The position numbers were made by a program, and so were the translations under genes. A stretch of DNA of 64,000 bases from Escherichia phage Lw1. The DNA is taken from the sequence record KC801932; one strand, 5' to 3'. This document shows, piece by piece, positions 6,607 through 38,336 of the stretch. The notes beneath the pieces were generated by a model. That model was not told where the DNA came from. It did not search any database and worked only from the letters and a program-made list of their open reading frames with translations. Within the stretch, counting starts at the first letter, position 1, and each line of letters starts with the position of its first letter.

Positions 6607-6627
6607 AATTCCCTCCGTTTAGGGTAT

Positions 6628-11531: not shown

Positions 11532-11534
11532 ATA
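11527..11534 (+). promoter_or_regulatory. T4-type late promoter box TATAAATA
   Basis: Exact TATAAATA ~20 nt upstream of gp6 ATG. Confidence 0.45.
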
Positions 11535-11554
11535 CCCGATAAAGAGGGGTAATA

Positions 11555-18497: not shown

Positions 18498-20311
18498 AAC
18501 AAGAAATTATTATAGGTAACGTGGTTGATGACGGCGCTGGCGATTACTTACGCCGTGGTGGTCAAAAAACAAACGCGAACTTTACCGAATTATATGAAAA
18601 GCTGGGTGACGGGGAAATCCCTCACCCAGCGGGTGCGTGGAAAACGCATTCCGCTCCTACATTGAACCCTATTTTTGGTGATTCATGGGCGCTGAATACC
18701 AGTAACAACCGTATTACTGTAAACCTCCCTAAAGGGGGCGTAAGCGATTATAACAAGGTTATTCGTCTGCGTGATGTTTGGAGTAAATGGGCGGTTAACA
18801 ACGTGCGTATCGTTCCGGCAACGGGAGACACCATCAAAGGTTCACCAACTTACAAAGAACTGTACAAAGATTTCATGGATGTTGAACTGGTTTATTGTGC
18901 TCCTGGGCGTTGGGAATACGTCGAGAACAAACAGGTTGACAAAATAACAACTTCGGATCTGGCTACCGTAGCGAAAGAAACCTATATCGCAACTCAGGGA
19001 CAGACAGACTTCCCGAATGTGTTCGGTCCTGGCAACATGTACAACGTTCGTGCTCTCGAAGTCTACTATCGTGGTAACTTGCTGTACATCGACGATAAGA
19101 ACGGCTTTAATGAAGCAAACAGTGATTACGGTTCGCCTGGGGCAACTGCGGGGCAACTCGTAGAACTGGATGGAACCAACATACGCCTTAAACGTCCCTG
19201 TAACGCTGGTGACACGCTTCAATTTGTCACCTATATGGATGGTATAGCAACATGGCGTTCGACGTATGAAGCGCATACAATGCGCGTATACAACACTGGA
19301 GACACTGAACTTGTGAGCGTACCTGGTGAAATCTGGGTTGGCGATCTGGCTAACAAGAAAGAATTCACCACTGCTGAATTTGGTATCAGTTCCCGTGTGT
19401 TGATTAACCCGAATTCATTCGAACTGCTGCTGAACGGTCGTCAGCTTGTAAAAGCAGGTGATGCGGATCTTCCTACGTTTGTTTGTGAAGGTGCGGAAGG
19501 TTATGATGAAGATAGCTGTTTGGCTAACTCCGGTTTATGGGTTCCGTCTGGACAGGATTACAGTCTAATCTTTGTTAACTCTATTGTGACTGGGATTAAG
19601 TTTCATCAGGCACTGGAAACCCGCGATGTGGTAACAATCCGTTGGTTCAATAACGATATCGGAACCGTAATGGAATGGGACGGCGTAGGCGGTATTAAAG
19701 AGCATACGGATAAACTGTATCTGAATAACGAAGACGAATTGACTTTGGTTAATCAGATTGAATATACAGACTACAACAACCCGTCACAAAAAACAATGCG
19801 TAAGGTTGCAGATCCTTTCGTTGGTCGTCTGTTGGATTTGCAAGCGTTTTTCGATGTGATTCACCCTATTGGGACAATTTACGAAAACGCACACAACGAC
19901 GCAAACCCAGGCGATTATATGGGATTTGGTATCTGGACACGATATGCAGAAGGGATGTTTATTGCTGGTTGGACTACCGATGCAGCAGATAGCGATTTTG
20001 GGCTGAACAATAACGATCTGGATGGTTCCGGTCAACCTACACACACATCAGGTGGTACTGGTGGTGAACGCGGCTACGAAATCAAACCGATCAACGTTCC
20101 ACAAATCGAATCTACCGATAAAGTTCTGATTAAGGACGATAACGGGATCATTATCATTGGTGGTTGTCAGGTTGACCCAGATGCAACAGGACCAGGATAC
20201 ACTAAATACCGTGAGGATGTATTGAAAGTAAATCAGGGTAATACTACTCCTGATAAGCTGAAAACGCTCCCTCCGTATATTACTGCACATCGCTGGATAA
20301 GGGTAGCATAA
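18494..20311 (+). CDS. 10: baseplate wedge subunit / tail pin gp10
   Basis: 605 aa, synteny. Confidence 0.85.
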   Translation: MKQEIIIGNVVDDGAGDYLRRGGQKTNANFTELYEKLGDGEIPHPAGAWKTHSAPTLNPIFGDSWALNTSNNRITVNLPKGGVSDYNKVIRLRDVWSKWAVNNVRIVPATGDTIKGSPTYKELYKDFMDVELVYCAPGRWEYVENKQVDKITTSDLATVAKETYIATQGQTDFPNVFGPGNMYNVRALEVYYRGNLLYIDDKNGFNEANSDYGSPGATAGQLVELDGTNIRLKRPCNAGDTLQFVTYMDGIATWRSTYEAHTMRVYNTGDTELVSVPGEIWVGDLANKKEFTTAEFGISSRVLINPNSFELLLNGRQLVKAGDADLPTFVCEGAEGYDEDSCLANSGLWVPSGQDYSLIFVNSIVTGIKFHQALETRDVVTIRWFNNDIGTVMEWDGVGGIKEHTDKLYLNNEDELTLVNQIEYTDYNNPSQKTMRKVADPFVGRLLDLQAFFDVIHPIGTIYENAHNDANPGDYMGFGIWTRYAEGMFIAGWTTDAADSDFGLNNNDLDGSGQPTHTSGGTGGERGYEIKPINVPQIESTDKVLIKDDNGIIIIGGCQVDPDATGPGYTKYREDVLKVNQGNTTPDKLKTLPPYITAHRWIRVA

Positions 20312-20973
20312 TGACACAATTTATTTCAAAGACAAGGGAGGGGGCGAAAGTCCCTTCTCGTGAAGCAGACTTTTTGCAATATGAAATGGGTACGAAAGAA
20401 CCCCTTATTGGTGGTAAACGTACCATCGGCGGTGCAAACGTTGATCAGCTTCGCAAAGGGATAGACTATCCCAACGTACAATCAGCAATCGATGACCTGT
20501 ATTCTCTGACTCAACAGATCCCGATTAACGGGGTTATCATGATGACAGAAGACAGTCCACCGACCGCTGTTCAGCAGGTAGAAACAATCACGTTTGATGG
20601 AACTGTACAAAATCCAGATCCAGACCAAACGAAAGCAACCGTTCATGTTTATGGCTTTCCGTTTGTATTCGATAACACAACGAACGCCTCTACGGTATGC
20701 GAAACAGTATTCAACAAGTTTACTGAATTTGTCAACGACGAAAAATATTTCGATCTGGTTACGCGTAAAGGATTGAACGGGGAAATTCTGGAAGTTCGTT
20801 TTATTGATGCGGTTCCACATCCGGTAACTAACGCAACAGAAAACGGGATCTCTATGGTTGGTGTAATCGACGTACAGGCGCGTTCTGGTTACGGTACGTG
20901 GTCGAAACTGGGTGAGATTGATCTTGCTGTAACTCCACCTGTTCCGATTTATTATTTCAAACGTATTGCGTAA
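20311..20973 (+). CDS. 11: baseplate wedge subunit / tail pin gp11
   Basis: 220 aa, synteny. Confidence 0.8.
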   Translation: MTQFISKTREGAKVPSREADFLQYEMGTKEPLIGGKRTIGGANVDQLRKGIDYPNVQSAIDDLYSLTQQIPINGVIMMTEDSPPTAVQQVETITFDGTVQNPDPDQTKATVHVYGFPFVFDNTTNASTVCETVFNKFTEFVNDEKYFDLVTRKGLNGEILEVRFIDAVPHPVTNATENGISMVGVIDVQARSGYGTWSKLGEIDLAVTPPVPIYYFKRIA

Positions 20974-20982
20974 GGATAACCA

Positions 20983-22374
20983 ATGAGTAACAACACAATT
21001 AACCACGTAAGCGATGCGTCAGTTTACGTGACTTTCGATCCGGCTGGTACGCAATGGCCTTCGACGTTTACCAACGTACAGCAAGCCCTAGCCTCTATAG
21101 GCTCATGGGCGCGTGAAGATGTGGGTTTGCCTAACGCTGCCCCTGGTGTGCGTGGTATCGCTGCTATTGCTACCGAGGCGATGATTGACGCAGGTACTGA
21201 CACCGAAACGATCGTTACTCCAGCGCTGTTGGCATATCGTTTACAGAATCCTCATGCGTCACAAACTGTATGGGGTTATACCCGTTATGCGACCGATGCA
21301 GAAGCAACCACAATCACTAACGATTTGGTTTCTGTAACTCCGCGTTCTGTTGATGTTATTTTCAACACCAGACAAGCAACAGAAACTGTATGGGGTTCTG
21401 CGAAACTGTCAACTACAGCACAAGCAACATCAGGTACTGATGACACAACCGCAATGACTCCATTGAAGGTTAAACAAGCGATCTCCGCTCTGGTTCCGGT
21501 TCAATCTAACGCAACGGAAAGTTCGTTCGGTTTGGTTCAGTTGGCTACGGTTGCAGAAGTCCGCGCAGGTACTATCCGCGATGGATTTGCAATTTCACCA
21601 TATACGTTTATTCGTCTGAATGCAACAGAATCCGATCTAGGTATTATTCGAATAGCTTCACAGGGTGAAGTCAACACAGGCGCTGATGATACAAAAGCTG
21701 TTACCCCGCTGAAACTGGCTAACTTGAAAGGTTCTGGTAGCGCGTTTGGTTTGGTTAAATTATCAACAGATGTAAACACAGGGCTGGCGAACACAGCGCT
21801 TTCTGCTGGTGCTAACGTGGTTCCGAGCAACCGTGATAGTGCAATTACTGGTGGTGCTCTGTATCAGGGTTCAGTTACTGGTGCTAATAAATACCAAACA
21901 CATAGCGACGTTGAAGCAAATATTCCTATTGGGTGTATGATGCTCGCGGCATTCAACTCAGATTACGGAAACCTGTTTATCGCAAACGGTCGCGCGATGA
22001 ATAGAAACGCAAACCCAGAACTATTTGCACGTATTGGCTACGCATATGGCGGTAGTGGTGATATTTTCAACCTCCCAGATATGCGCGGGGTTGCTGCTCG
22101 TGGTTTCGATGCGGGACGTGGGTTAGATCCTGGTCGCGGGTTTGGTACATATCAGGCCGATGCGTTTGCGTATCACGAACATAACCTACAGATGATTTTG
22201 CTGAACGGCGGTAATATTCCATCAAGTCAGGCTGTTTATGAACTGAAATGGGCCAAGAAAAATGACCAACGAATCTATGATTTAGATCCGAACTATAGCA
22301 AAGCTAAGGGTGTTGGTGCTAACGAAACGCGAATGAAAAACGTTGCGGTCAACTATGTAATTCGAGTACGATAA
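20983..22374 (+). CDS. 12: short tail fiber protein gp12
   Basis: MSNNT..HVS N-terminus, repeated TxxxGxxKLxT motifs, C-terminal NLPDMRG...ELIGNETR..YIIRV-like region shared with T4 gp12. Confidence 0.9.
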   Translation: MSNNTINHVSDASVYVTFDPAGTQWPSTFTNVQQALASIGSWAREDVGLPNAAPGVRGIAAIATEAMIDAGTDTETIVTPALLAYRLQNPHASQTVWGYTRYATDAEATTITNDLVSVTPRSVDVIFNTRQATETVWGSAKLSTTAQATSGTDDTTAMTPLKVKQAISALVPVQSNATESSFGLVQLATVAEVRAGTIRDGFAISPYTFIRLNATESDLGIIRIASQGEVNTGADDTKAVTPLKLANLKGSGSAFGLVKLSTDVNTGLANTALSAGANVVPSNRDSAITGGALYQGSVTGANKYQTHSDVEANIPIGCMMLAAFNSDYGNLFIANGRAMNRNANPELFARIGYAYGGSGDIFNLPDMRGVAARGFDAGRGLDPGRGFGTYQADAFAYHEHNLQMILLNGGNIPSSQAVYELKWAKKNDQRIYDLDPNYSKAKGVGANETRMKNVAVNYVIRVR

Positions 22375-22386
22375 AGGGGTTAATCC

Positions 22387-24675
22387 ATGATTTCAAAACT
22401 TAACCCGTTACCAAAGATCCCGTTTGTTGATGGTGTCCCTTCGGACACCACACAAACCCCGATCAGTTGGATTCTTAACGGTGAGACTCTCGACGGGGCC
22501 AAAACAAAGGTCACTAGCGAGGGTTCTTTAAACAGATGCGGCGTTCTGGTTCAAAAGAACGCGGTGCAATTGGAAACAAACACCATTACGCAAACGGCAA
22601 AAATCAACGAAGTTATCGATCAAGTTAACCTCATTAGTGAAAACCTCGCGGCTATTTCTGATGAAAGCGTGATCGAAAAACTGGATCAGGTCGTTGCTGA
22701 TGTGGAAGTGTTAAAAGTCGATATGACTGCGGTTCAAGGTTCTACCGCAAGCAATACCCTGAAAATTCAGGATCTCGATAAAGATATCGGGACATGGGAT
22801 GCTACAACAGATCCAAAACACCGAACCATTCGCAAAGATATTATTTTTCTGAAAGGGGAAATGGGCGCATATCCTGGATTTAATCAGGACGGTGACGTAG
22901 ATCCTACTTCAACTGGCTCTGGAATGAAATACAAAATCATGACGAACGCGCAAGCGATTTCGATTCATGAAGGGCGTATTACCAGACTGGAAGACGATTG
23001 GGCCAACTCAGATGTAGGCCATTTAACTGATGAAGTTACCGACTTGCGTAATGAAATGGGGCCGAAACATTTAGCAACGTTTGAATCGGTGTACGTTCGT
23101 CTGAATAAAATTGGTACGGATATCACTGGGATTAATACCGAACTGACAGAAATCAACCAATATATCGGTCGTACTGGTACAGGTGGTTCTGGAAGTATTT
23201 CTGCTCGAATGACTACGGCAGAAACGAATATTGTTACTCTGCAAACGCAGATGAATGATTCTTCCGTTGGTGTTCTTCCTCGCGTAATTTCTCTTGAAAA
23301 CCAAGTTGGGAATTCGCAGGTTCCGGGTAGTATTCGTTATGATATCAGTAATATCAAACGTGACATTAGCGACCTGAATATGGTTGTTGGTGAATCAAGC
23401 GATGAAGGGCTACGGGGCGAAATGGCTCAGGTTATGTCCGATATCGGTACAGATTCACAACCTACAAGCATTAAAGGCCGTCTGCTTAACGTAGAGAATA
23501 CGCAGCGCGACGATCACCAGCGTTTGATTGATGTCGAATCTATTGTTGGTAACACCTCAAGCGGACTTGTTGCGGCTAACATCGCAATGGGTAAAGCGGT
23601 TTATGGTGATGCAACCAGTTCAGATCCGTTCCTCAAAGACGGTATTCAGAAAACGACTCGCGATAGCAAAACTGCAATTGGTGTCAACACTACAGGTTCT
23701 GAAACTGGAATCTATAAGTTGATTTCCGATCTGACTGCTCGTGTTGCTGCTCTGGAAAGTGGTTCTGGTAGTGATCTCGAACAGCGTGTTTCCGATCTTG
23801 AAGTCAATAAAGCATCGCATCAGGACGTTACAAACGCACTGGTTCCGTATATTACTGAAACTGAGGCCGATATCAAGTACGAACCGAAGAAGATTCCGCT
23901 TGCGTTCACTCAAAACCTCGTTGGTCGAAATGATTATATCGAAGGTGATGACATTTCTCTGATGGTTACTGTATCTGGTGGTAAAGTCCCTTATGCGTAC
24001 CAGTGGAAGAAAGACAACGCGAACGTAGGTACGAACGCATCAAGTTTGATGATCCAGACCATCACATCGGCTAACGCTGGCGTGTATAAGGTTGAAGTAA
24101 CTGACGCAGATAACACGGTTATCACTTCTAACGAATTGACAATTGCTGTTTATCCGGTTCCTCAGTTCGATACTAACCTGGCTGATAAATCAGTGGTTGA
24201 CGGTGATCCTCTGACTCTGGAAGTTGTGTATAGCGGCGGTAAACCTTCGTACACTTACGAGTGGTTCAAAGATAACTCTGTTATCTCTGGGGCAACATCA
24301 GCAACATTTACCAAATCTGCGGTTACAAGTGCCGATGCTGGTGAATACTATGTTTCTGTGACTGACTCGATGAACAACCAAAATGATTCAGTGAAAGCAA
24401 ATGTGACGGTAACACCACGTCCTGCACTGGCATTCACTACGGATCTGAGTTCTACTAAATCATATAGCACAGGTGCTGATATGGACCTTGCTGTTGTCGT
24501 AACTGGTGGTAAAACACCATATACGTACAAATGGTTTAAAGACACTGCGGAAATTTCCGGTCAGACAGGCGCAAGCCTTACCACTGTAGCAGAAGATGGA
24601 GTGTATAAAGTCGAAGTGACTGATGCACTAACGACTAAAATCACATCAACTGAATGCACGGTAACTGTTGCATAA
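22387..24675 (+). CDS. wac: fibritin (wac) with three C-terminal Ig-like repeats
   Basis: N-terminus (LPKIPFVDGVPSD..ISWILNGETLDG) like T4 fibritin; long coiled-coil; C-terminal ~230 aa made of three repeats (GGKxPYxYxWxKD...GxYxVxVTD). Confidence 0.8.
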   Translation: MISKLNPLPKIPFVDGVPSDTTQTPISWILNGETLDGAKTKVTSEGSLNRCGVLVQKNAVQLETNTITQTAKINEVIDQVNLISENLAAISDESVIEKLDQVVADVEVLKVDMTAVQGSTASNTLKIQDLDKDIGTWDATTDPKHRTIRKDIIFLKGEMGAYPGFNQDGDVDPTSTGSGMKYKIMTNAQAISIHEGRITRLEDDWANSDVGHLTDEVTDLRNEMGPKHLATFESVYVRLNKIGTDITGINTELTEINQYIGRTGTGGSGSISARMTTAETNIVTLQTQMNDSSVGVLPRVISLENQVGNSQVPGSIRYDISNIKRDISDLNMVVGESSDEGLRGEMAQVMSDIGTDSQPTSIKGRLLNVENTQRDDHQRLIDVESIVGNTSSGLVAANIAMGKAVYGDATSSDPFLKDGIQKTTRDSKTAIGVNTTGSETGIYKLISDLTARVAALESGSGSDLEQRVSDLEVNKASHQDVTNALVPYITETEADIKYEPKKIPLAFTQNLVGRNDYIEGDDISLMVTVSGGKVPYAYQWKKDNANVGTNASSLMIQTITSANAGVYKVEVTDADNTVITSNELTIAVYPVPQFDTNLADKSVVDGDPLTLEVVYSGGKPSYTYEWFKDNSVISGATSATFTKSAVTSADAGEYYVSVTDSMNNQNDSVKANVTVTPRPALAFTTDLSSTKSYSTGADMDLAVVVTGGKTPYTYKWFKDTAEISGQTGASLTTVAEDGVYKVEVTDALTTKITSTECTVTVA

Positions 24676-24681
24676 TTTAAC

Positions 24682-24702
24682 AAGGGGCGCAAGCCCCTTT
24701 TG
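24682..24702 (+). terminator. rho-independent terminator after wac
   Basis: aaggggc gcaa gcccctt hairpin + tttt. Confidence 0.6.
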
Positions 24703-24710
24703 AGGATCAT

Positions 24711-25634
24711 ATGATTACGAACAACCCTGAACAATTGAAGGATGAAATTCTTCGTCGTCTGGGCGCACCAATCATCAAAATCGAAATCACACAAGACCAG
24801 ATTTACGATTGCATTCAACGCGCACTGGATCTGTATGCGGAATATCATTACAACGGAACAAACAAAAGCTATATTATTCTGACACTGGGCGAAGATAACC
24901 CACGCAACGTATTTGATTTGAGCAAAGAACACATTTTCGCGATCACAAAAGTATTGCGTACAAATATCGGTTCCCTGGTTTCTATGGATGGTACAGCGGT
25001 TTATCCGTGGTTTACCGATTTCCTGATGGGGCTTACTGGTGGTTCATTGGGCGGTCGCTGTTCATCCAGTGTATACGGTATGAACGCATACGGTGCGGAT
25101 CTGGGGTATTTTACACAGATGATGTCCTATCAGCGCTCGATGCAAGATTTGCTGGCTCCGTTGCCTGATTACTGGTACAACGATGACACTGGTCAATTTT
25201 GCGCATGGGGTAAAGTCAACTACGGTGATATCATTGTTATTGAAGCGATGGTCCGTTCTTTCGTTGACGTTCCTAGTGCCGTAGGAAGCGTTGCAGGATA
25301 CGCTACAGCGGGTTCTAACGCAGTAGAAGACCAATCTATAGCCGACATCTACGATAACCCTTATAACGCGGTTGTGGGCGGTGTACGTGCGGGGCAGGGA
25401 ACAACTGTTACTGGTGGAACCTCTGCATATAACAACCGTTGGGTAAAAGACTACTCGACCGCGCTGGTAAAAGAAATCAACGGACAAATTCTGGCTAAGT
25501 TCCAGGGTATGCAATTGCCTGGTGGTGTTGCTCCTGATGGAACGCGACTGATCCAGGAAGCAGAAACCAAATTACAAGGATTGCGCGACGAACTGATTTC
25601 TATGTCTGACGCAGTTCCTATTATTATGGTGTAG
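24711..25634 (+). CDS. 13: neck protein gp13
   Basis: N-terminal region (PEQLKDEILRRLGAPIIKIEITQDQIYDCIQRALDLY) nearly identical in pattern to T4 gp13. Confidence 0.9.
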   Translation: MITNNPEQLKDEILRRLGAPIIKIEITQDQIYDCIQRALDLYAEYHYNGTNKSYIILTLGEDNPRNVFDLSKEHIFAITKVLRTNIGSLVSMDGTAVYPWFTDFLMGLTGGSLGGRCSSSVYGMNAYGADLGYFTQMMSYQRSMQDLLAPLPDYWYNDDTGQFCAWGKVNYGDIIVIEAMVRSFVDVPSAVGSVAGYATAGSNAVEDQSIADIYDNPYNAVVGGVRAGQGTTVTGGTSAYNNRWVKDYSTALVKEINGQILAKFQGMQLPGGVAPDGTRLIQEAETKLQGLRDELISMSDAVPIIMV

Positions 25635-25642
25635 GGGGAATA

Positions 25643-26389
25643 ATGCAAAACTGGGATGAAAGTTTATTCGCTCAGTTGTCAACGGGAGAGGGAGTTGATC
25701 GCAACTTAAAGGATCAAGTTACTAACCCGTATGTAAACTGGTACAAATATAACCCGACACAACAGCTACACGATTCACTGACAGCAGAATCCATACAGAT
25801 GAAATCACCTGATATGTATTATGTCAGACGTGAATTTGTGAATATAGATAAAATACTGGGTGAAGACCGAGAATCTAAATTTACGAAATCGTGGAAGATT
25901 GCGGCATATATTGAATCATACGCCAACTACGAAGGACAGCGGGACTTCTTTAGCAAATTTGGGTTGAGTTCTAACGACGAAATGACGCTGGTACTGAATC
26001 CGCGTTTATTTGCACATCAAACTGATGGTGGTATTCCTGTGTTGGGGGATTTGATTTATTTCCCTATGGACAACAGCCTGTTTGAAATTACATGGGTGGA
26101 AGCAGATCCGTTCTATCAGTTCGGTGATCGTCCTCAACGTAAAATCAACCTGGCTAAATTCATCTACACGGGCGAAGAATTGGCTCCTGAATTGCAGCGA
26201 AACGAGGGAATCCATATTGAACCTGATGCAGAACTGGATCTTGAACCTATTCGAAATCTCGACGGGCTGGCAGATATCAACATTGAACAGTACGAAGAAG
26301 ACAAAGAATTTGAAAAAGAAAGTGACGAGTTCATCGATTCTTTTGATGTTGTCAACGGACGCGGATCTCCATTCGCAACGTTGCCCTAA
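25643..26389 (+). CDS. 14: neck protein gp14
   Basis: 248 aa, synteny. Confidence 0.8.
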   Translation: MQNWDESLFAQLSTGEGVDRNLKDQVTNPYVNWYKYNPTQQLHDSLTAESIQMKSPDMYYVRREFVNIDKILGEDRESKFTKSWKIAAYIESYANYEGQRDFFSKFGLSSNDEMTLVLNPRLFAHQTDGGIPVLGDLIYFPMDNSLFEITWVEADPFYQFGDRPQRKINLAKFIYTGEELAPELQRNEGIHIEPDAELDLEPIRNLDGLADINIEQYEEDKEFEKESDEFIDSFDVVNGRGSPFATLP

Positions 26390-26446
26390 ATAGTTTATAT
26401 GGGTATAGGCGAAAGTCTGTACCCTCTTCGAAGAGGATTTTATGAT

Positions 26447-27172
26447 ATGGTTGCAAAAATCTCTATAGAACAAAGAGAACATCAATTAAAAGAACGTTGT
26501 GCGGAATTAGAACTATCTTTTGATGGATGGGTAGACCAATCAGCGATCACAAAATATTCAAAGTTTTATGTTGTTTGCAGTAAAGGACATAGAACAGAAA
26601 AACAGATCAAACCATTTGTCAACAAAAGTCGTCCAAACGGATGTTATTTGTGTTCCCCTAAGATGAAAATATCAAAGGAAAACAGAATCGAGGAAATCAA
26701 AACTCTTGCAGATTCAATTGGATATACATTCGTAGATTTCGTTGGGGTGTATAAAGATGCACACACAAAAATATCAATGGTTTGCGATAAAGGCCATAAT
26801 TGGGATGTAAGTATAGTTGCTTTTCTCAATCAAGGTCATCGCTGTAAAAAATGCGCAACGTCTGGGTTCAATCCGAACAAACCAGCATACGTATACGTAC
26901 AATCACTATCTGGAAAATTTCTGAAATTTGGGATAACCAACAGAACACCAAAGAAAAGAATGTGTGCGCAATCAAATAAATCCGTTTATAAACACGAACT
27001 GGTTTATCAAAAATTATTCGATAAAGGTATTGATGCAATGAGTATTGAACAGAAGATCAAACAATCTCTTGTTTGTGGCGTAGTCGATAAATCAGATATG
27101 ATGGATGGATATACAGAAACAACAGATATATCCAATTACGATAAACTGTTGAATATTATAGAAGGAGTATAA
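26447..27172 (+). CDS. tandem zinc-ribbon protein with C-terminal GIY-YIG-like (T5orf172-type) motif; putative freestanding homing-endonuclease-like insertion between gp14 and gp15
   Basis: Two C-x-KGH...C-xx-C modules; motif YVYVQSLSGKFLKFGITNR; absent from this position in T4; start set at ATG 26447 with SD, palindrome cctcttcgaagagg just upstream. Confidence 0.5.
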   Translation: MVAKISIEQREHQLKERCAELELSFDGWVDQSAITKYSKFYVVCSKGHRTEKQIKPFVNKSRPNGCYLCSPKMKISKENRIEEIKTLADSIGYTFVDFVGVYKDAHTKISMVCDKGHNWDVSIVAFLNQGHRCKKCATSGFNPNKPAYVYVQSLSGKFLKFGITNRTPKKRMCAQSNKSVYKHELVYQKLFDKGIDAMSIEQKIKQSLVCGVVDKSDMMDGYTETTDISNYDKLLNIIEGV

Positions 27173-27174
27173 AA

Positions 27175-27992
27175 TTGTTTGGCTACTGGTATAATAGCTC
27201 ACTGCGTAACTACATTGTTCTTATGGGACAATTGTTTAACCATGTTCAGGTTAAAAGAGTTCGCGGCGACCAAGAAAAATTTATTAAGGTTCCAATTACC
27301 TACGCATCGAAAGAGAAATTTCTTGCTTCCATGAATAAACTCAACTATGCGTATAGTCAGGAAAACGTAGCAAAGACGGAAACCATTTTACCGCGAATGA
27401 ACTTATCACTGGTCGATCTGCAATATAACGCAATTCGTAAAACCAGCATCGCGGTCAACCAAAAAATGACGCAATTGCAATCACCCCGCAAGACGATCAC
27501 GCAGTTTAACCCTGTGCCTTATCGTTTAATTTTTGAACTGGGTGTGTATACGCGATATGAAGACGACATGTTTCAGATTGCAGAACAGATTTTACCGTAT
27601 TTTCAACCACATTTCAACTGCAAGATTACCGAACTGCATAAGAACGAAATCACAGTTGACCGAGACATCAAAATCAGTCTCCAGTCGGTTGCACCAGATA
27701 CAACGTTTGAGGGCGAAGCATCACAGCGCCGACATGTTGAATGGTCTTTCATGTTCGAATTGCAGGGTTATCTGTACCCGCCTGTTACTGACGTTAAGGG
27801 CGAAATCAGAACAGTATACACGGATTTCTTTGCCAATATGAACCCATTGGATAAAGATAACTTTGAATCCGTTGATAGTCAAGCCGATCCGGTAGATCTG
27901 CCTTTGCAGGATTACACGGGCGAAGAATATATTCAGACGTATTCGCACGATAAGCCGATCCCGTCTGGTGATGAACCTCCTAAGCCGAGGGA

Positions 27993-27996
<4 letters not shown>
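27175..27996 (+). CDS. 15: tail sheath stabilizer / completion protein gp15
   Basis: 273 aa, synteny; apparent TTG start at 27175 preceded by GAAGGAG SD. Confidence 0.85.
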
Positions 27997-30336
<2,340 letters not shown>

Positions 30337-30354
30337 ATTAGAGGAAATTCTATA

Positions 30355-32346
30355 ATGGCTTTACAATCTCCAGGTATTGAAACCAAAGAAACATCGGTAC
30401 AATCTACCGTTGTTCGAAATTCAACTGGTCGCGCTGCCATTGTTGGTAAATTTTCATGGGGGCCAGCTTATCAGATCCGTCAGATTTCTAACGAAGTCGA
30501 ACTGGTAAACTATTTTGGTTCCCCAGACAACCTAACCGCTGATTATTTCATGAGTGCTGTTAACTTCTTGCAGTACGGTAATGATCTCCGTGTGGTTCGT
30601 GTTGTCGATAAAGATGCCGCAAAAAACGCAAGCGCAATTTTTAACCAGATCAAAACAACCATTGCTTCGCAGGGTTCCAACTACACCGTTGGCGACGTAA
30701 TTAAGGTAAAATATAGCAACAACGTAGTTGAAGAAAATGGTAAAGTGTCAAAAGTTGACAGTAACGGCAAAATCCTTGCGGTAGTCATCCCAAGCGAAAA
30801 AATCGTTGCTCGTGCAAAACAGATCGGGACTTATCCAGATATTTCTACTGGCTGGACTACTGAAATCGTTTCTCAGTCTTCTGGTGTGTCTGCGTCAATC
30901 ACGATCGATGGTATCGAAAGCGATTCTGGTATCACTCTGCTGAACCTGGATATTGCTAAAGAAACCATTCAAGGAACTGCGTTCCAGACACTGACCCAGA
31001 AATACCAGATCCCATCTGTTGTGGCTCTGTATCCTGGCGAACTGGGTTCTACTGTAGAGGTGGAGATTATCTCCAAAGCTGCTTACGATTCTGGCGCTAT
31101 GATTTCCGGTTTCCCTTCTGGGATCTCCGTTAAAAACAGCGGTCGCTCTGTGATGACTTATGGTCCACAGACCGAAAACCAGTACGCTTTTGTTGTGCGT
31201 CGTGGTGGTATTGTACAAGAATCTTTCATCGTGTCAACAGAAAAAACCGACAAAGATATCTACGGCGTAAACATCTATATGGATGACTTTTTCGCTAACG
31301 GTGGTTCACAGTACGTATTCGGTACTTCTATGAACTGGCCTAAAGGCTTCTCCGGTATTCTAGAATTTGGTGGTGGTTTGTCCTCAAACGACACCGTAGG
31401 CGCTGATGAACTGATGACTGGTTGGGATATGTTCGCTGATCGCGAAGCCCTTCACGTCCCGCTGCTGATTGCTGGTGCTTGTGCTGGTGAAACCGTAGAA
31501 GTAATGTCTACTGTTCAGAAGCATGTTATCTCGATCGGTGACGAACGTCAGGATTGTACTGTGTTTGTATCGCCTCCGCGTTCTCTTCTGGTGAACATTC
31601 CTCTTGCTCAGGCAGTGGATAACATCGTTGAATGGCGTATGGGATATACAATCAGTGGTAACACTCCGGTAGACAACAACCTGAACGTAAGTTCAAGCTA
31701 TGGCTTCCTGGATGGTAACTATAAATATCAGTATGATAAATACAATGACGTGAACCGCTGGGTTCCGCTGGCAGGTGATATCGCTGGCCTGTGTGTTTAC
31801 ACTGATAGCGTTGCGCAACCGTGGATGTCTCCGGCTGGTTACAACCGTGGTCAGATCCGTAACTGCATTAAACTGGCTATTGAACCGCGTACTGCACACC
31901 GTGACGCGATGTATCAAGTTCAGATTAACCCGGTAACAGGTTTTGCAGGTGGCTCTGGTTTCGTTCTGTTCGGTGATAAAACACTGACTAATGTTCCGAG
32001 TCCGTTCGATCGTATCAACGTTCGTCGCTTGTTCAACATGATCAAGAAAGACATCGGGGATAACGCGAAATACAAACTGTTTGAAAACAACGACGATTTC
32101 ACCCGTGCTTCGTTCCGTATGGATACTGGTCAGTACATGACGAATATTCGTGCGCTGGGTGGTTGCTATGATTACCGTGTAATCTGCGATACCACGAACA
32201 ACACGCCGGATGTAATTGATCGTAACGAGTTTGTAGCGACCATTTACGTGAAACCGCCACGTTCTATCAACTACATCACTCTGAACTTCGTAGCAACGTC
32301 TACAGGCGCAGATTTCGATGAATTGGTAGGGCCACAAGCCGTATAA
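30355..32346 (+). CDS. 18: tail sheath protein gp18
   Basis: 663 aa, strong similarity pattern to T4 gp18. Confidence 0.95.
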   Translation: MALQSPGIETKETSVQSTVVRNSTGRAAIVGKFSWGPAYQIRQISNEVELVNYFGSPDNLTADYFMSAVNFLQYGNDLRVVRVVDKDAAKNASAIFNQIKTTIASQGSNYTVGDVIKVKYSNNVVEENGKVSKVDSNGKILAVVIPSEKIVARAKQIGTYPDISTGWTTEIVSQSSGVSASITIDGIESDSGITLLNLDIAKETIQGTAFQTLTQKYQIPSVVALYPGELGSTVEVEIISKAAYDSGAMISGFPSGISVKNSGRSVMTYGPQTENQYAFVVRRGGIVQESFIVSTEKTDKDIYGVNIYMDDFFANGGSQYVFGTSMNWPKGFSGILEFGGGLSSNDTVGADELMTGWDMFADREALHVPLLIAGACAGETVEVMSTVQKHVISIGDERQDCTVFVSPPRSLLVNIPLAQAVDNIVEWRMGYTISGNTPVDNNLNVSSSYGFLDGNYKYQYDKYNDVNRWVPLAGDIAGLCVYTDSVAQPWMSPAGYNRGQIRNCIKLAIEPRTAHRDAMYQVQINPVTGFAGGSGFVLFGDKTLTNVPSPFDRINVRRLFNMIKKDIGDNAKYKLFENNDDFTRASFRMDTGQYMTNIRALGGCYDYRVICDTTNNTPDVIDRNEFVATIYVKPPRSINYITLNFVATSTGADFDELVGPQAV

Positions 32347-32368
32347 GTCAAAGGGGCTTTTCAGCCCC

Positions 32369-32376
32369 TATAAATA
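32369..32376 (+). promoter_or_regulatory. T4-type late promoter TATAAATA upstream of gp19
   Basis: Exact TATAAATA preceded by aggggc/gcccct hairpin. Confidence 0.5.
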
Positions 32377-32390
32377 ATCCGAGGTTAAAA

Positions 32391-32876
32391 ATGCTTACTG
32401 ACATTTTACGCGCCTTTGAATCCGGTGATTTCGCACGTCCGAACTTGTTCGAAGTAGAGATCCCGTATCTGGGCAAAAACTTTAAATTCAAATGTAAAGC
32501 GGCAACAATGCCAGCGGCTACAGTTGAAAAAGTCCCTGTAGGCTACCAGAACCGCAAAATTAACGTTGCTGGCGACCGTACCTATGATGACTGGACAATC
32601 ACAATCTATAACGATGACGCGCACAATACGAGAAACGCACTGGTAGCATGGTCAAATATGCTGCACGGTATGGGTGATCAAATTAGCGGTGATATTCCAG
32701 CGAACTACAAAAAAACTGCTACGGTGAAACAGAAAAACCGTAACGAAGAGATAACCGCTGAACACACCATTCATGGTTTATTCCCGACTAACGTTGGTGA
32801 GGTTACTTTGGACTGGGATTCGAATAATGAAGTATCAACTTTCGAGTGTACCTTTGCGCTGGACTGGTGGGAATAA
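32391..32876 (+). CDS. 19: tail tube protein gp19
   Basis: AFESGDFARPNLF..KINVAGDRT..DDWT..LDWDSNNE motifs shared with T4 gp19. Confidence 0.95.
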   Translation: MLTDILRAFESGDFARPNLFEVEIPYLGKNFKFKCKAATMPAATVEKVPVGYQNRKINVAGDRTYDDWTITIYNDDAHNTRNALVAWSNMLHGMGDQISGDIPANYKKTATVKQKNRNEEITAEHTIHGLFPTNVGEVTLDWDSNNEVSTFECTFALDWWE

Positions 32877-32881
32877 AGAGT

Positions 32882-32889
32882 TATAAATA
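32882..32889 (+). promoter_or_regulatory. T4-type late promoter TATAAATA upstream of gp20, followed by 7-bp stem hairpin aggggta-gcaa-tacccct
   Basis: Exact TATAAATA ~40 nt upstream of ATG 32931. Confidence 0.5.
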
Positions 32890-32930
32890 CAGGGGTAGCA
32901 ATACCCCTATCATTATTTTTCGGAGTTACT

Positions 32931-34505
32931 ATGAACTTTTTGGGCTTTGGCAATGTACTTAGCTTTTTCAAGAATTTCGCCCGTGAGGATGAAATTGAAC
33001 TTGAACAGCAATTAAAAAATGATACAGGTTCGGTCGCGCCTCCTAAAAATAATGATGGTGCTTACGAGATCGAAACCGATCTGAATAACCAGAAATATGC
33101 TGGCGTATTCCAACAATTTTATTCTGGACAAGATCCAGCGATCCAAAACAAAGAACAATTAATTAATACGTATCGCGGTATTATGTCTTATCCAGAAGTT
33201 GAAAACGCAGTGTCGGAAATTATCGACGATGCGATCGTTAACGAACAGGGTAAAGATATCATCACCCTGGATCTGGCTAAAACGAATTTTAGTAAGGCTA
33301 TTCAAGATAAGATCGTTGAAGAGTTCGACAACGTTCTAAATATCTATGACTTTGATAACATGGGCGCACGTCTGTTCCGTGATTGGTATGTGGATTCCCG
33401 TATATACTTCCATAAAATCATGCACAAAGACGAAACCAAAGGTATCCGCGAACTGCGTCAACTTGACCCGCGTTGCATGGAACTGATCCGAGAATCTATC
33501 ACAGAAACCCTTGATGGTGGCGTGAAAGTATTCCGGGGTTATCGCGAATTTTTCGTGTATAGCGCTCCTAAAGCTGGCTATACATACAACGGACAGATCT
33601 ACCAGGCAAACCAGAAGATTAAGATCCCGCGCTCCGCTATCGTGTACGCTCATTCCGGTCTGGAAGATTGCAGCAACAATATTATCGGATATCTTCACCG
33701 CGCTGTCAAGCCTGCAAACCAATTGCGTTTGCTTGAAGATGCGATGGTGATCTACCGTATTACCCGTGCTCCTGAACGCCGTGTGTTCTATATCGACGTT
33801 GGACAGATGGGCGGTAACAAAGCGACTCAGTACGTGAATAACATTGCACAGGGCTTAAAAAACCGTGTTGTGTATGATGCCCGTACAGGTACTGTTAAAA
33901 ACCAGCAGAACAACCTGTCAATGACAGAAGATTACTGGTTGATGCGTCGTGACGGTAAAGCGATTACAGAGGTTTCTACGCTTCCAGGCGGTCAGAACTT
34001 CTCTGATATGGATGATATCAAATGGTTTAACCGTAAGCTCTATGAAGCCCTGCGTGTGCCATTAAGCCGTATGCCTCGCGATGACGGGGGTATGCAAATT
34101 GGTGGTGGTGGTGAAATCACCCGTGATGAACTCAAATTTAACAAGTTCATACGCACACTGCAAATTCAGTTCAGTCCTGTTCTGTCAGATCCGTTAAAAA
34201 CGAACCTGATTGCGAAAAAAGTCATCACCGAAGATGAATGGGACGAGAACGTTAGCAAAATTTCGTTTATCTTCCAGCAGGATTCATATTATGCGGAAGT
34301 AAAAGACATCGAGATCATGGAACGCCGTCTAACGTTGATGTCTCAGGTCGAGGGTGTAGTTGGGAAATATGTCTCCCATAAATACATCATGAAAGAGATT
34401 CTTCGAATGTCCGACGAGGATATTGACGAACAAGCGAAATTGATCGAAGAAGAATCTAAAGAAGAACGTTTTAAAAATCCAGAAGCGGAAGAGGAAAACT
34501 TTTGA
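32931..34505 (+). CDS. 20: portal vertex protein gp20
   Basis: 524 aa (same as T4 gp20), synteny. Confidence 0.95.
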   Translation: MNFLGFGNVLSFFKNFAREDEIELEQQLKNDTGSVAPPKNNDGAYEIETDLNNQKYAGVFQQFYSGQDPAIQNKEQLINTYRGIMSYPEVENAVSEIIDDAIVNEQGKDIITLDLAKTNFSKAIQDKIVEEFDNVLNIYDFDNMGARLFRDWYVDSRIYFHKIMHKDETKGIRELRQLDPRCMELIRESITETLDGGVKVFRGYREFFVYSAPKAGYTYNGQIYQANQKIKIPRSAIVYAHSGLEDCSNNIIGYLHRAVKPANQLRLLEDAMVIYRITRAPERRVFYIDVGQMGGNKATQYVNNIAQGLKNRVVYDARTGTVKNQQNNLSMTEDYWLMRRDGKAITEVSTLPGGQNFSDMDDIKWFNRKLYEALRVPLSRMPRDDGGMQIGGGGEITRDELKFNKFIRTLQIQFSPVLSDPLKTNLIAKKVITEDEWDENVSKISFIFQQDSYYAEVKDIEIMERRLTLMSQVEGVVGKYVSHKYIMKEILRMSDEDIDEQAKLIEEESKEERFKNPEAEEENF

Positions 34506-34750
34506 TGAAAGAATTTATCGAAGCAATCAAAAGCGGCGATCTGGTGGAGGCTAAGAAGCAATTCTACTCCATCATGGAAGACCGTACCGAAGCCCTTCGC
34601 CAAGAAATGCGCGTTGAAATTGCAGAAGCAGTCCGAATCGAAGGTGAAACCGACGAAGACGACAGCGACGATGATAAAGACGACAAAGACGGCGAAAAAG
34701 GCGAAAAAGACAAAAAGCCGTCTGAAAAAGACGACAAAGCCGACGAATAA
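34502..34750 (+). CDS. 67: prohead core protein gp67
   Basis: 82 aa with acidic D/E/K-rich tail; synteny. Confidence 0.8.
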   Translation: MMKEFIEAIKSGDLVEAKKQFYSIMEDRTEALRQEMRVEIAEAVRIEGETDEDDSDDDKDDKDGEKGEKDKKPSEKDDKADE

Positions 34751-34762
34751 GAGGTGTAAATA

Positions 34763-35170
34763 ATGCAACTCGAACTCGAAGATATTAGTACCGAACTTAT
34801 CGAACCCCATTTAACCGAAGCGAAAGCCCGTGTTGATATTCTGGGGATTGATGAAGGTACAATTAAAATTATCGAAAATTTGGCGGTCGATGAACCTCAT
34901 TTGGCCCTGGCGATGATGTCCATTGTTGAGGGTTTGAGTTTAGATGAAGTCATTGTTAAACACGTCGATTCTCGCGGTAATGTGGAACGTAAAAAGGACC
35001 GCAAAACCCGTGAACGTAACGCGTATCAAACAACTGGTCTTACTAAATCTCAACGTCGCCAGATCGCGCGTCGTGCGATGAAAACAAAACGTGCGAATCC
35101 TTCTATTACAACCCGCGCACAACGTAAGCGCAAAAAAGCGCTCCGTAAACGCGCCGCATTAGGGCTATAA
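34763..35170 (+). CDS. 68: prohead core protein gp68
   Basis: 135 aa, basic C-terminus; synteny. Confidence 0.8.
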   Translation: MQLELEDISTELIEPHLTEAKARVDILGIDEGTIKIIENLAVDEPHLALAMMSIVEGLSLDEVIVKHVDSRGNVERKKDRKTRERNAYQTTGLTKSQRRQIARRAMKTKRANPSITTRAQRKRKKALRKRAALGL

Positions 35171-35172
35171 AT

Positions 35173-35820
35173 ATGAATGAATCCCAACTCAATGAAAACG
35201 GCGATATGCTGCTAATCGAGGAATGGGGTTTACCTTGTGCGGATATTTCCGATTCGATTTTAGAATCGGTCGGTGCGTCTAAAGACGGTAAACTTCGGAT
35301 TGAAGGTATTTTCCTACAGGCTGAAAAAGTAAACCGTAATAAACGACTGTACCCGAAAAAAGTATTAGAAGAAGCAGTAAATGATTATATCAGAACTCAA
35401 GTTAATACCCGTCAAGCACTGGGTGAAATGAATCACCCTCCGCGCCCGAATGTGGACCCGCGAAATGCTTGCATCCTCATTGAAAAAATGTGGTGGAAAG
35501 GTAATGACGTTTGGGGCCGTGCGGTTGTTGTCGAAGGTGACAACGCGGATGGTGATAAACTTGCGGCGTTAATTCGTGCTGGTTGGGTTCCTGGTGTTTC
35601 TTCTCGCGGACTAGGTAAACTTGCCGATTCCGGTAAAGGTTACGGTATCGTACAAGAAGGGTTTAAATTGGCTGTAGGTGTTGATGTAGTTTGGGGGCCA
35701 AGCGCTCCAGATGCTTACGTTAAACCAATAACCGAATCTCAGCAGACGAAACCGCTTGTTGAGAATATTAGTGCTGATGACGCTTTCAGAAAATTATCTG
35801 AACGTTTGAAAGGTCTATAA
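35173..35820 (+). CDS. 21: prohead core scaffold protease gp21
   Basis: 215 aa, synteny directly before gp22. Confidence 0.9.
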   Translation: MNESQLNENGDMLLIEEWGLPCADISDSILESVGASKDGKLRIEGIFLQAEKVNRNKRLYPKKVLEEAVNDYIRTQVNTRQALGEMNHPPRPNVDPRNACILIEKMWWKGNDVWGRAVVVEGDNADGDKLAALIRAGWVPGVSSRGLGKLADSGKGYGIVQEGFKLAVGVDVVWGPSAPDAYVKPITESQQTKPLVENISADDAFRKLSERLKGL

Positions 35821-35850
35821 ATAATATCATATCAAACAGGAAACTTAGAA

Positions 35851-36642
35851 ATGCTAAAAGAACAACTGTTGGCAGAAGCCCAGAACCTGGATACTCCAGT
35901 TGAGTTAGACAGCATTTTCGAATCAGTTGAACTTTCTGATGAAGTGAAAGCGAATTTCACCACTGTATTCGAACAAGCTGTAAAAGCTAACGCTGTAAAA
36001 CTCGCAGAATCCCATATCAATCAGATCGCGGAACGTTCCGATGAACTGGTTGAAGCCCAGGTTGCCGAAAAAGCTGGCGCAATCGAAACACAACTGTACG
36101 AAGATGCAAATAAATACTTCGACCACATCGCACAAGAATGGCTCTCAGAAAACAAAGAAGCCGTATCCCGCGATATTAAGGCCGACTTATTCGAATCTCT
36201 GGTTGCTGGTATGAAAGAATTGTTCGTTGATCACAACGTAATTATTCCAGAAGCCCAGGTTGATGTTGTTGCAGAACTCGAAGATGAACTGACCGAAAAT
36301 CAGCAGGAAGTTAAGCGCCTGTTTGAAGCGAATCAGGCTCAGGCTAAAGAGATCGCCAACATGAAACGCGATACAATCGTTTCAGAAAAAACCAAAGATT
36401 TAACCGAATCCCAGGTTGAGAAAGTTCAGAACCTGATCGAAGGTTTGGAATATTCCGACAAGTTCGAATCCAAACTGACCGCAATTGTCGAAATGGTAGC
36501 GACTAAAGCGGAAAAACAGGTTGACGAGAGTACAAATACTCAGACAACCACTAAAGACGATTTTGTTCCGGTAAATGAAAATGCTCCGGCAGAGAAATCG
36601 AAGATCAATAAATATGTTGAAGCGGCTAAACGCCTTTCCTAA
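35851..36642 (+). CDS. 22: prohead core scaffold protein gp22
   Basis: 263 aa acidic helical protein, synteny. Confidence 0.85.
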   Translation: MLKEQLLAEAQNLDTPVELDSIFESVELSDEVKANFTTVFEQAVKANAVKLAESHINQIAERSDELVEAQVAEKAGAIETQLYEDANKYFDHIAQEWLSENKEAVSRDIKADLFESLVAGMKELFVDHNVIIPEAQVDVVAELEDELTENQQEVKRLFEANQAQAKEIANMKRDTIVSEKTKDLTESQVEKVQNLIEGLEYSDKFESKLTAIVEMVATKAEKQVDESTNTQTTTKDDFVPVNENAPAEKSKINKYVEAAKRLS

Positions 36643-36663
36643 TCTTTTATAAGGTAAGAAACA

Positions 36664-38244: not shown

Positions 38245-38259
38245 GACTTTACACAAGAA

Positions 38260-38286
38260 AGGCAACCTACGGGTTGCCTTTTTTTA
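38260..38286 (+). terminator. rho-independent terminator after gp23
   Basis: aggcaacc tacg ggttgcct hairpin + ttttttt. Confidence 0.8.
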
Positions 38287-38336
38287 TGGTGTAAATAGAT
38301 ACAGGATAAAAGCCCTCTAATTCAGGAACCAAAGAA

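Follow-up and report, generated by a model that had tools for sequence, protein, structure and literature searches.

The closest described systems to the gene analyzed here are the T5orf172-type genes of ICP1 (gp53, gp121, gp130, gp165, and gp174; Barth, Dunham & Seed 2023, PMC10448857), which combine N-terminal repeated zinc fingers (CapR/DUF723/DUF4379) with a C-terminal T5orf172-type domain. These genes are freestanding, lie beside essential structural or terminase genes, vary between close isolates, and sit at boundaries of genetic exchange; they were taken to be homing endonuclease genes (HEGs) from genomic signatures alone, and T4 itself has no genes of this type (PMC10448857). CapR relatives form the DNA-binding ends of such putative homing endonucleases (PMC8096241, PMC10448857), CapR itself being a DNA-binding zinc-finger protein from the PLE satellite of Vibrio cholerae whose paired Cys ligands are needed for it to bind DNA (Netter et al. 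2021, PMC8096241). Here we examined a 64,000-nucleotide (nt) stretch of Escherichia phage Lw1 (sequence record KC801932; hereafter the window), a Pseudotevenvirus whose gp14-gp15 stretch is 97.3% identical to that of Escherichia phage RB16, and an open reading frame (ORF) of 241 amino acids (aa) that lies in it between gp14 and gp15. We conclude with high confidence that this ORF is a freestanding HEG of the T5orf172 class, carried by an RB16-like Pseudotevenvirus.

The Lw1 gene resembles the ICP1 class in its domain order, freestanding form, neighborhood, variability between close isolates, and, in the comparison with RB16, position at an exchange boundary. Its protein also aligns over its full length, at 24.5% identity and with 95% of the query covered, to the ICP1 'tcgB putative homing endonuclease'. 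Unlike the ICP1 genes, it resides in a T4-like Pseudotevenvirus, and its protein falls below the Pfam thresholds for T5orf172 and MUG113. The best match among phage records outside Pseudotevenvirus is T5 Orf141 (T5.141, YP_006969; 36.8% identity over 98% of the length), which has been cited as a relative of the ICP1 CapR-domain HEGs (Netter et al., PMC8096241) and is equally uncharacterized biochemically. Orf141 likewise lies between structural genes, those for a tail assembly chaperone and the tape measure protein, but at another site and in another family, Demerecviridae. CapR carries a PF21817 module homologous to those of the Lw1 protein, but is a single DNA-binding domain that acts as a repressor (PMC8096241), whereas the Lw1 protein has two modules and a putative nuclease domain. 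No sequence similarity to I-TevI or the T4 Seg proteins was detectable; in these, the nuclease domain is N-terminal with a YIG motif and DNA is bound by NUMOD or helix-turn-helix elements, while the Lw1 protein has a C-terminal nuclease domain with KFG in place of YIG and CapR-type zinc fingers.

Public records call the gene 'conserved hypothetical', 'endonuclease', or 'putative GIY-YIG nuclease', and our literature search found no paper analyzing the HEG locus between gp14 and gp15. Petrov et al. 2010 included one 'other GIY-YIG' HEG, left unnamed, in their count for RB16, and RB16 and its fellow carrier Cronuts are absent from the supplementary tables of PMC10448857.

A putative homing endonuclease gene inserted between gp14 and gp15

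The ORF spans 26447-27172 on the plus strand and begins 9 nt downstream of a GAGGA Shine-Dalgarno (SD) sequence (26433-26437), at the same start that is annotated in RB16. A 257-aa version beginning at an in-frame ATG 16 codons upstream (26399) was rejected, since that ATG lacks an SD and lies at the 5' edge of a native hairpin (26401-26424). The position assigned in the first-pass annotation, between gp14 and gp15, was confirmed by the ORF coordinates and by Pfam matches of both neighbors: gp14, the neck protein of head closure, at 25643-26389 on the plus strand (PF11649, E 3.9e-87; phrog_679), and gp15, the tail sheath stabilizer, at 27175-27996 on the plus strand (PF16724, E 1.7e-97), followed by gp16 and gp17 (terminase). 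The whole 241-aa protein matched phrog_681 'endonuclease' (E 8.8e-63), and the GC content of its gene is 34.2%, versus 42-46% in the flanking genes. No paralog was found elsewhere in the 64-kb window, and PADLOC returned no defense-system match.

Comparison of the gp14-gp15 junction among relatives showed that the gene is polymorphic for presence and absence rather than universal at this site. The junction is uninterrupted in ~145 related phage records, so the description of the gene as inserted, also made in the first-pass annotation, is correct. The HEG occurs in 9 records representing 7 phages (RB16, Cronuts, JC03, leE, phi1_146010, phi1_146015, and UPEC03), with proteins 98.3-99.6% identical across these records; 17 further records have a different HEG, and two carry remnants. 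At the nucleotide level, the window copy is 99.2-99.6% identical to those of RB16, Cronuts, JC03, leE, and phi1_146010 (3-6 differences in 723 nt). For the last four of these phages, HEG identity is 99.4-99.6% (3-4 differences in 723 nt), compared to 89.6-89.8% for gp14, 89.5-89.7% for gp15, 80-81% for gp16, and 87-88% for gp13. This discordance is a strong mark of recent horizontal transfer. The high-identity tract covers 26420-27280, with the last mismatch on the left at 26419 and dense mismatches resuming at 27281, and thus measures ~0.85 kb in the Cronobacter and Klebsiella phages.

Within this tract, junction alignments delimited an inserted cassette at 26425-27174 (plus strand) that consists of a leader, the HEG ORF, and a new ribosome-binding site (RBS) for gp15. 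The cassette replaces ~20 nt of native spacer for a net gain of 727 nt (record spans of 2354 versus 1627 nt), and neither a target-site duplication nor terminal, transposon-like repeats were found at its ends. Three sister pairs with and without the HEG are 99-100% identical in their flanks: JC03/GAP161, leE/leB, and Cronuts/SemperBestia. JC03, with the HEG, and GAP161, without it, belong to the same species, and leE and leB came from the same Irish sludge sample. Members of these pairs differ by the cassette and by 16 substitutions within the first 23 codons of gp15 (27175-27243, plus strand), including a cluster that changes GGGGGCGCTT to GGGACAATTG at 27228-27234, with a single aa change (A19Q). 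This recoded 69-nt gp15 haplotype is strictly linked to the HEG, while at most 11-28 nt are converted to the left of the cassette.

Intronless homing, known from the T4 seg genes (PMC2988022), classically leaves such a pattern. The recoded part of gp15 (27175-27243) is most likely the recognition or cleavage region, made resistant in carriers, and we treat it as a candidate on the basis of the allele comparisons. In the mechanism that we propose, the HEG would be transcribed within the late structural transcript and translated from its own SD. Upon co-infection with a relative that lacks the HEG, the zinc-finger modules would recognize either the junction of gp14 and gp15 or the beginning of gp15, where the nuclease domain would then cut the HEG-less allele. 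With the HEG-bearing genome as template, T4-type recombinational repair would copy the cassette together with no less than 69 nt from the 5' end of gp15. The mostly synonymous substitutions in gp15 codons 1-23 would protect the HEG-bearing allele, and the cassette would provide a stronger SD for gp15, whose start codon is now TTG.

The same comparisons bear on whether the gene could instead be an old resident, vertically inherited, lost from most lineages, and no longer mobile. A 73%-identical homolog does occupy the same site in a distant T4-like metagenomic contig (L015) whose flanking proteins are similarly diverged (62-80% aa identity), and the leader of this homolog (…GATTTAAGGAGAATTTTTGTG) is homologous to that of the window. 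The two genes align without gaps, with a nonsynonymous divergence (dN) of 0.19 (0.235 in the C-terminal domain) and a saturated synonymous divergence (dS), which indicates long-term purifying selection; gp14 was left out of this comparison because the ungapped assumption fails there. By these alignments, the HEG lineage is old, tied to the gp14/gp15 site, and kept under purifying selection. However, phages with ~10% flank divergence differ by only 3-6 of 723 nt in the HEG, and members of the same species or sister pairs are polymorphic for its presence with flanks that are 99-100% identical. Independent precise losses would also not restore a different 69-nt gp15 haplotype. We therefore consider a vertically inherited, immobile gene extremely improbable.

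Two CapR-type zinc-finger modules precede a putative GIY-YIG-type nuclease domain

The N-terminal 140 aa of the HEG protein consist of two copies of the CapR homology domain. Module 1 (aa ~5-72; 26459-26662, plus strand) contains the motif C44-SKG-H48...C66-YL-C69, and module 2 (aa ~75-140; 26669-26866, plus strand) contains C113-DKG-H117...C133-KK-C136, the numbered residues being the presumptive zinc ligands. PF21817 matched the protein in two stretches with 64.9 bits, against a gathering score of 24.2, and the N-terminal half alone with 67.4 bits. The best stretch in module 2 was aa 84-137, which also had a weak overlapping match to the DUF4379 treble clef. The modules are homologous to each other (BLASTP E 1e-6), an internal repeat, and in the AlphaFold model each consists of a helix followed by three strands and a second, short helix. 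Among homologs, C44 and C69 do not vary, and C66, C113, C133, and C136 are nearly invariant. The ligand pairs lie ~17-26 residues apart in both modules, as expected of the CapR type, with a first pair of the form C-x3-H in the HEG protein versus CxxC in CapR. The two zinc modules proposed in the first-pass annotation are therefore present, but their class is corrected from zinc ribbons to CapR homology domains (PF21817).

The C-terminal putative nuclease domain (26882-27169, plus strand) carries the motif YVYVQSLSGKFLKFGITNR at aa 148-166. Neither T5orf172 (PF10544) nor MUG113 (PF13455) was matched by the whole protein at E<=1 or by aa 143-241 alone at E<=10. The C-terminal 99 aa had no match in NCBIfam, and PDB searches with the protein and with a 30-sequence family profile were also negative. 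An exhaustive search with the C-terminal domain recovered 524 library homologs; among the best 120 of these (each E<=2.2e-8 to the domain), 55 matched MUG113 and 25 matched T5orf172, two families that both belong to the GIY-YIG clan. Structure models were obtained of the whole protein (pLDDT 88.1) and of the domain only (pLDDT 96.6), and the C-terminal domain has the beta-beta-alpha-beta-alpha core of the GIY-YIG fold. In BFVD, the protein has more than 200 viral structural relatives that are variously named CapR-homology, T5 Orf172, GIY-YIG, or homing endonuclease. One relative is annotated 'Hef-like', and the endonuclease Hef, whose activity has been shown experimentally, may belong to this family.

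Seven residues of this domain (Y150, K160, G162, R171, E201, G221, and E224) are invariant in at least one family alignment and conserved at >=90% in the widest. The near-invariant positions map to strand 1 (Y150), strand 2 (K160-F-G162), helix 1 (R171), the helix after strand 3 (E201), and the segment D-G221-Y-T-E224-T. The order of Tyr, Arg, and Glu is that of GIY-YIG nucleases, with the T5orf172-typical 'K-[FI]-G' replacing 'YIG', and Y150, R171, and E201 lie in the topologically expected elements; their equivalence to Y6, R27, and E75 of I-TevI is deduced from this topology. Fold and transitive homology thus support the identification of the C-terminal domain as a GIY-YIG-type nuclease domain that retains all family-invariant residues. 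For the T5orf172-like assignment made in the first-pass annotation, this means that a GIY-YIG-like fold was found in the model, but that a direct Pfam match was not obtained.

The first-pass annotation had offered two readings of the gene, a homing-endonuclease-like mobile gene and a DNA-binding regulator acquired by insertion. The former is supported by the sporadic distribution, the discordance between 99.4% identity in the HEG and 89.6% in its flanks, and the GIY-YIG-type domain. Under the latter, the protein would be a domesticated regulator that, like CapR, binds DNA only, for example to tune late structural genes, and no longer cuts. Its N-terminal modules do fall into the CapR homology family, the founding member of which represses transcription, and the canonical YIG tyrosine is missing. 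However, CapR is a DNA-binding domain only (15.5 kDa), while the HEG protein keeps a C-terminal domain with every family-invariant residue and a dN of 0.235 with dS saturated. In addition, the sporadic distribution and the 99.4% versus 89.6% discordance fit a selfish element rather than a fixed regulator. Because the nuclease domain is intact, a role as a regulator is disfavored, and we regard it as highly improbable.

Several observations weigh against our interpretation of the gene as a homing endonuclease. According to PMC10448857, homing by genes of the T5orf172 type still awaits experimental proof. No nuclease family was matched directly by Pfam, NCBIfam, or PDB sequence or profile searches, and a comparison of the family profile with the catalytic domain of I-TevI by hhalign gave a probability of 0.35%, so only fold and transitive homology underlie the GIY-YIG assignment. 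Where the canonical GIY-YIG motif has its second Tyr, the protein has Phe161 (KFG), as T5orf172 proteins generally do. All four Cronobacter and Klebsiella lineages with the HEG have the same tract ends, which means that one homing event followed by ordinary recombination could also give the pattern. Finally, the proposed target, which comprises the recoded tract only, is a candidate.

Two unrelated putative nuclease genes occupy the gp14/gp15 site in different phages

The 17 records with a different HEG carry a 204-aa gene annotated mobE, with an HNH-like motif and NUMOD3, whose protein is unrelated to that of the Lw1 gene. In the two phages inspected, RB43 (L002, 2320-2934) and HMGUkp1 (L003, 2300-2914), the mobE-type gene occupies the identical gp14/gp15 site. 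It is 98.5-100% identical across 8 Klebsiella, Enterobacter, and Cronobacter phages, which makes it a second recently spreading HEG at one site. Mobile gene remnants of the mobE type were found at the same site in two further phages. In Fraggle_ER53 (L004, 2300-2473), the decayed gene is a 57-codon ORF left by an in-frame 441-nt deletion, with the original stop kept 3 nt upstream of the gp15 ATT. In phi1_146002 (L005, 2300-2538), 239 nt are left and the gene is frameshifted.

As in RB43, Miller, and HMGUkp1, where the mobE-type gene resides at the same site behind the same leader and the gp15 ATG has also been removed, the Lw1 cassette begins with a 24-nt leader (TCTTCRAAGAGGATTTTATGATAT) that is common to both cassette types in Pseudotevenvirus. 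Copies of the HMGUkp1 type are linked to the 'empty-type' gp15 haplotype. The mobE-type start codon corresponds to an out-of-frame ATG at window position 26442, which opens an 8-codon mini-ORF (26442-26468, plus strand); the mini-ORF is therefore a vestige of the shared leader. The mobE-type gene and the T5orf172/CapR-type HEG never occur together. The common leader suggests that one of the two nuclease genes took the place of the other by recombination within this sequence, in one direction or the other.

These findings also bear on the idea that the Lw1 ORF is a catalytically dead passenger that owes its spread to general recombination or to a nuclease encoded by another element, for example the mobE-type HEG. 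The common site and 24-nt leader of the two cassette types would suit a passenger, as would the identical tract ends in all lineages with the HEG, which fit one event plus recombination, and the nuclease activity of the HEG is predicted only. Yet the conserved motif residues are all intact in 7 independent phages and in the 73%-identical homologs, and the mobE-type gene is never present alongside the HEG. Moreover, a nuclease that protects its own allele would be expected to select for just such a linked, recoded gp15 tract. A passenger gene is accordingly improbable in our judgment, and an active homing endonuclease remains the interpretation that we favor.

The start of gp15 differs with the type of junction. 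Empty alleles read …CAGGAAAATAAAATG-TTT and start gp15 with ATG, and alleles of the window type read …AAGGAGTATAAAATTG-TTT and start it with TTG (27175). Alleles of the mobE type read …GGGGGATTAGAAAATT-TTT and start it with ATT, in frame with the mobE stop. TTG is used in all carriers of the HEG and ATT wherever a mobE-type gene or its remnants are present (L002, L003 at ~2918, L004, and L005), while ATG is found in empty alleles and in L015. In the window, the rebuilt start (27162-27177, plus strand) comprises a stronger gp15 SD, AAGGAG (27162-27167), inside the last codons of the HEG, followed by the HEG stop TAA (27170-27172) and the TTG. The gp15 N-terminus MFGYWYNSS is conserved in the window, in empty-site relatives, in L015, and in T4 gp15. 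Because of this conservation, the non-ATG start codons must be used. As a consequence of these codons, several public annotations give a shortened gp15 that begins at an internal ATG, 16 codons further down.

One further possibility is that the gp14/gp15 site is a contested landing pad, at which two unrelated HEGs replace each other through the shared 24-nt leader and both destroy the ATG of the essential gene gp15, so that translation of gp15 depends on the RBS at the 3' end of the cassette and on termination-reinitiation. We consider this extended scenario unlikely. If true, it would amount to an addiction-like arrangement in which clean loss of the selfish gene is costly, which would explain why the mobE remnant of Fraggle_ER53 keeps an in-frame mini-ORF to the original stop.

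The HEG lies at the left edge of a high-identity block shared with RB16

Identity between the window and RB16 changes abruptly at the HEG. It is 88% over 20000-26440, 99.4% over 26475-36900, and 92.5% from 37144 on, corresponding to 762 mismatches in 6441 nt to the left (11.8%), 59 in 10426 nt inside the block, and 97 in 1291 nt to the right (7.5%). The resulting ~10.7-kb block (26439-37143) extends from the HEG through gp15-gp22 into the 5' part of gp23. Its left edge, located between 26438 and 26474, coincides with the HEG start codon, and its right edge lies at 37144, inside gp23. RB16 has an HEG between gp23 and gp24 (RB16p215), 1.1 kb beyond the right edge, that is absent from the window. 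The block is similar to what PMC10448857 terms 'HEG islands' and 'boundaries of genetic exchange', with the qualification that it is a single pairwise case.

RB16 carries annotated HEGs at three other sites, gp2/gp4 (RB16p187), before gp6 (RB16p192), and gp23/gp24 (RB16p215), where the window has only short intergenic spacers (6607-6627, 11532-11554, and 38245-38336). HEG content thus differs at at least four sites between these close relatives.

Such a block raises the question of whether the main selected role of the HEG is phage competition or large-scale allele exchange, as in marker exclusion or the mobilization of an 'HEG island', with the cut promoting kilobase replacement in the genome of a rival. 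The 99.4%-identical block with its left edge at the HEG start, the 11.8% and 7.5% divergence on its two sides, and the RB16 HEG 1.1 kb beyond its right edge match the pattern reported in PMC10448857. Against this, the observation is a single pairwise one, the window lacks the right-hand HEG, which also does not lie exactly at the edge, and the converted tract is only ~0.85 kb in the Cronobacter and Klebsiella phages. We regard allele exchange as a possible but rather unlikely main role; it is, in any case, compatible with homing by the HEG.

The upstream palindrome is a chance feature beside a native stem-loop

The first-pass annotation noted a perfect palindrome in front of the gene as part of the insertion pattern. 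The palindrome, CCTCTTCGAAGAGG at 26423-26436, is present, but both its frequency and its conservation argue against a meaningful feature. The window contains 3 perfect 14-nt palindromes compared to 4.0 expected from shuffles, and the RNA hairpin it could form is weak (-6 kcal/mol, z -0.6) and is absent from the context fold. The palindrome is imperfect in RB16 and in mobE-type alleles, is reduced to 4 bp per arm in RB43, and is absent in L015. A simple terminator scan lists it, but the scan finds 3 sites versus 2.1 expected. Its first two bases are the end of the native hairpin, and the only conserved part inside it is the SD sequence of the HEG, which it overlaps, so it carries no insertion signature. 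Readings of the palindrome as a terminator, as a hairpin that sequesters the RBS, or as a mark of insertion were all rejected, given the weak hairpin, the chance frequency, and the poor conservation.

The native stem-loop itself (26401-26424, plus strand) follows gp14 and has the form GGGTATAGGC-GAAA-GTCTGTACCC, a 10-bp stem closed by a GNRA loop. It forms in the minimum free energy folds of the window, empty, and mobE-type leaders, and its last base, 26424, is also the last base common to the window and empty-site alleles. A stem with a GAAA or GGAA loop follows gp14 in all Pseudotevenvirus relatives, empty sites included, whatever occupies the site. In the late transcript, the stem-loop may serve RNA processing or stability or act as a terminator-like element.

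No sigma-70-like site that could serve as a dedicated HEG promoter was found on the plus strand, and the T4 late-promoter motif TATAAATA does not occur near the HEG, its nearest plus-strand copies being at 11527 and 31720. Across the window, this octamer is present 10 times compared to 2.8 expected, a count that none of 100 shuffles reached; 7 of the 10 copies are on the plus strand ahead of structural genes, and none lies less than 4.5 kb from the HEG. In most relatives, but not in the window, CATAAATA, one base off the late-promoter motif, overlaps the gp14 stop.

Elsewhere in the structural region, wac/fibritin (22387-24675) encodes 762 aa, with three tandem ~90-aa repeats of Ig-like appearance in its C-terminal third (…GGKxPYxYxWxKDN…GVYKVEVTD…). 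The gene is 2289 nt long in the window, RB16, Cronuts, and leE and 2040 nt in JC03, GAP161, and Fraggle, and it is among the genes most diverged from RB16 (86.7%).

Implications for T4-like phages

Collectively, the sequence comparisons support the view that the gene between gp14 and gp15 is an unusually well-delimited example of an already described class of mobile gene, for which we infer catalysis, target, and homing. For annotation, 'putative T5orf172/CapR-type homing endonuclease' is preferable to 'hypothetical protein'. The locus offers clean material for a test of homing, because natural, culturable sisters with and without the HEG are available (JC03/GAP161 and leE/leB), the site of insertion is sharply delimited, and the candidate target spans only 69 nt. 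Two nuclease families turn over at this single site, and recombination has a boundary exactly at the HEG; both observations bear on the mosaicism of T4-like genomes.

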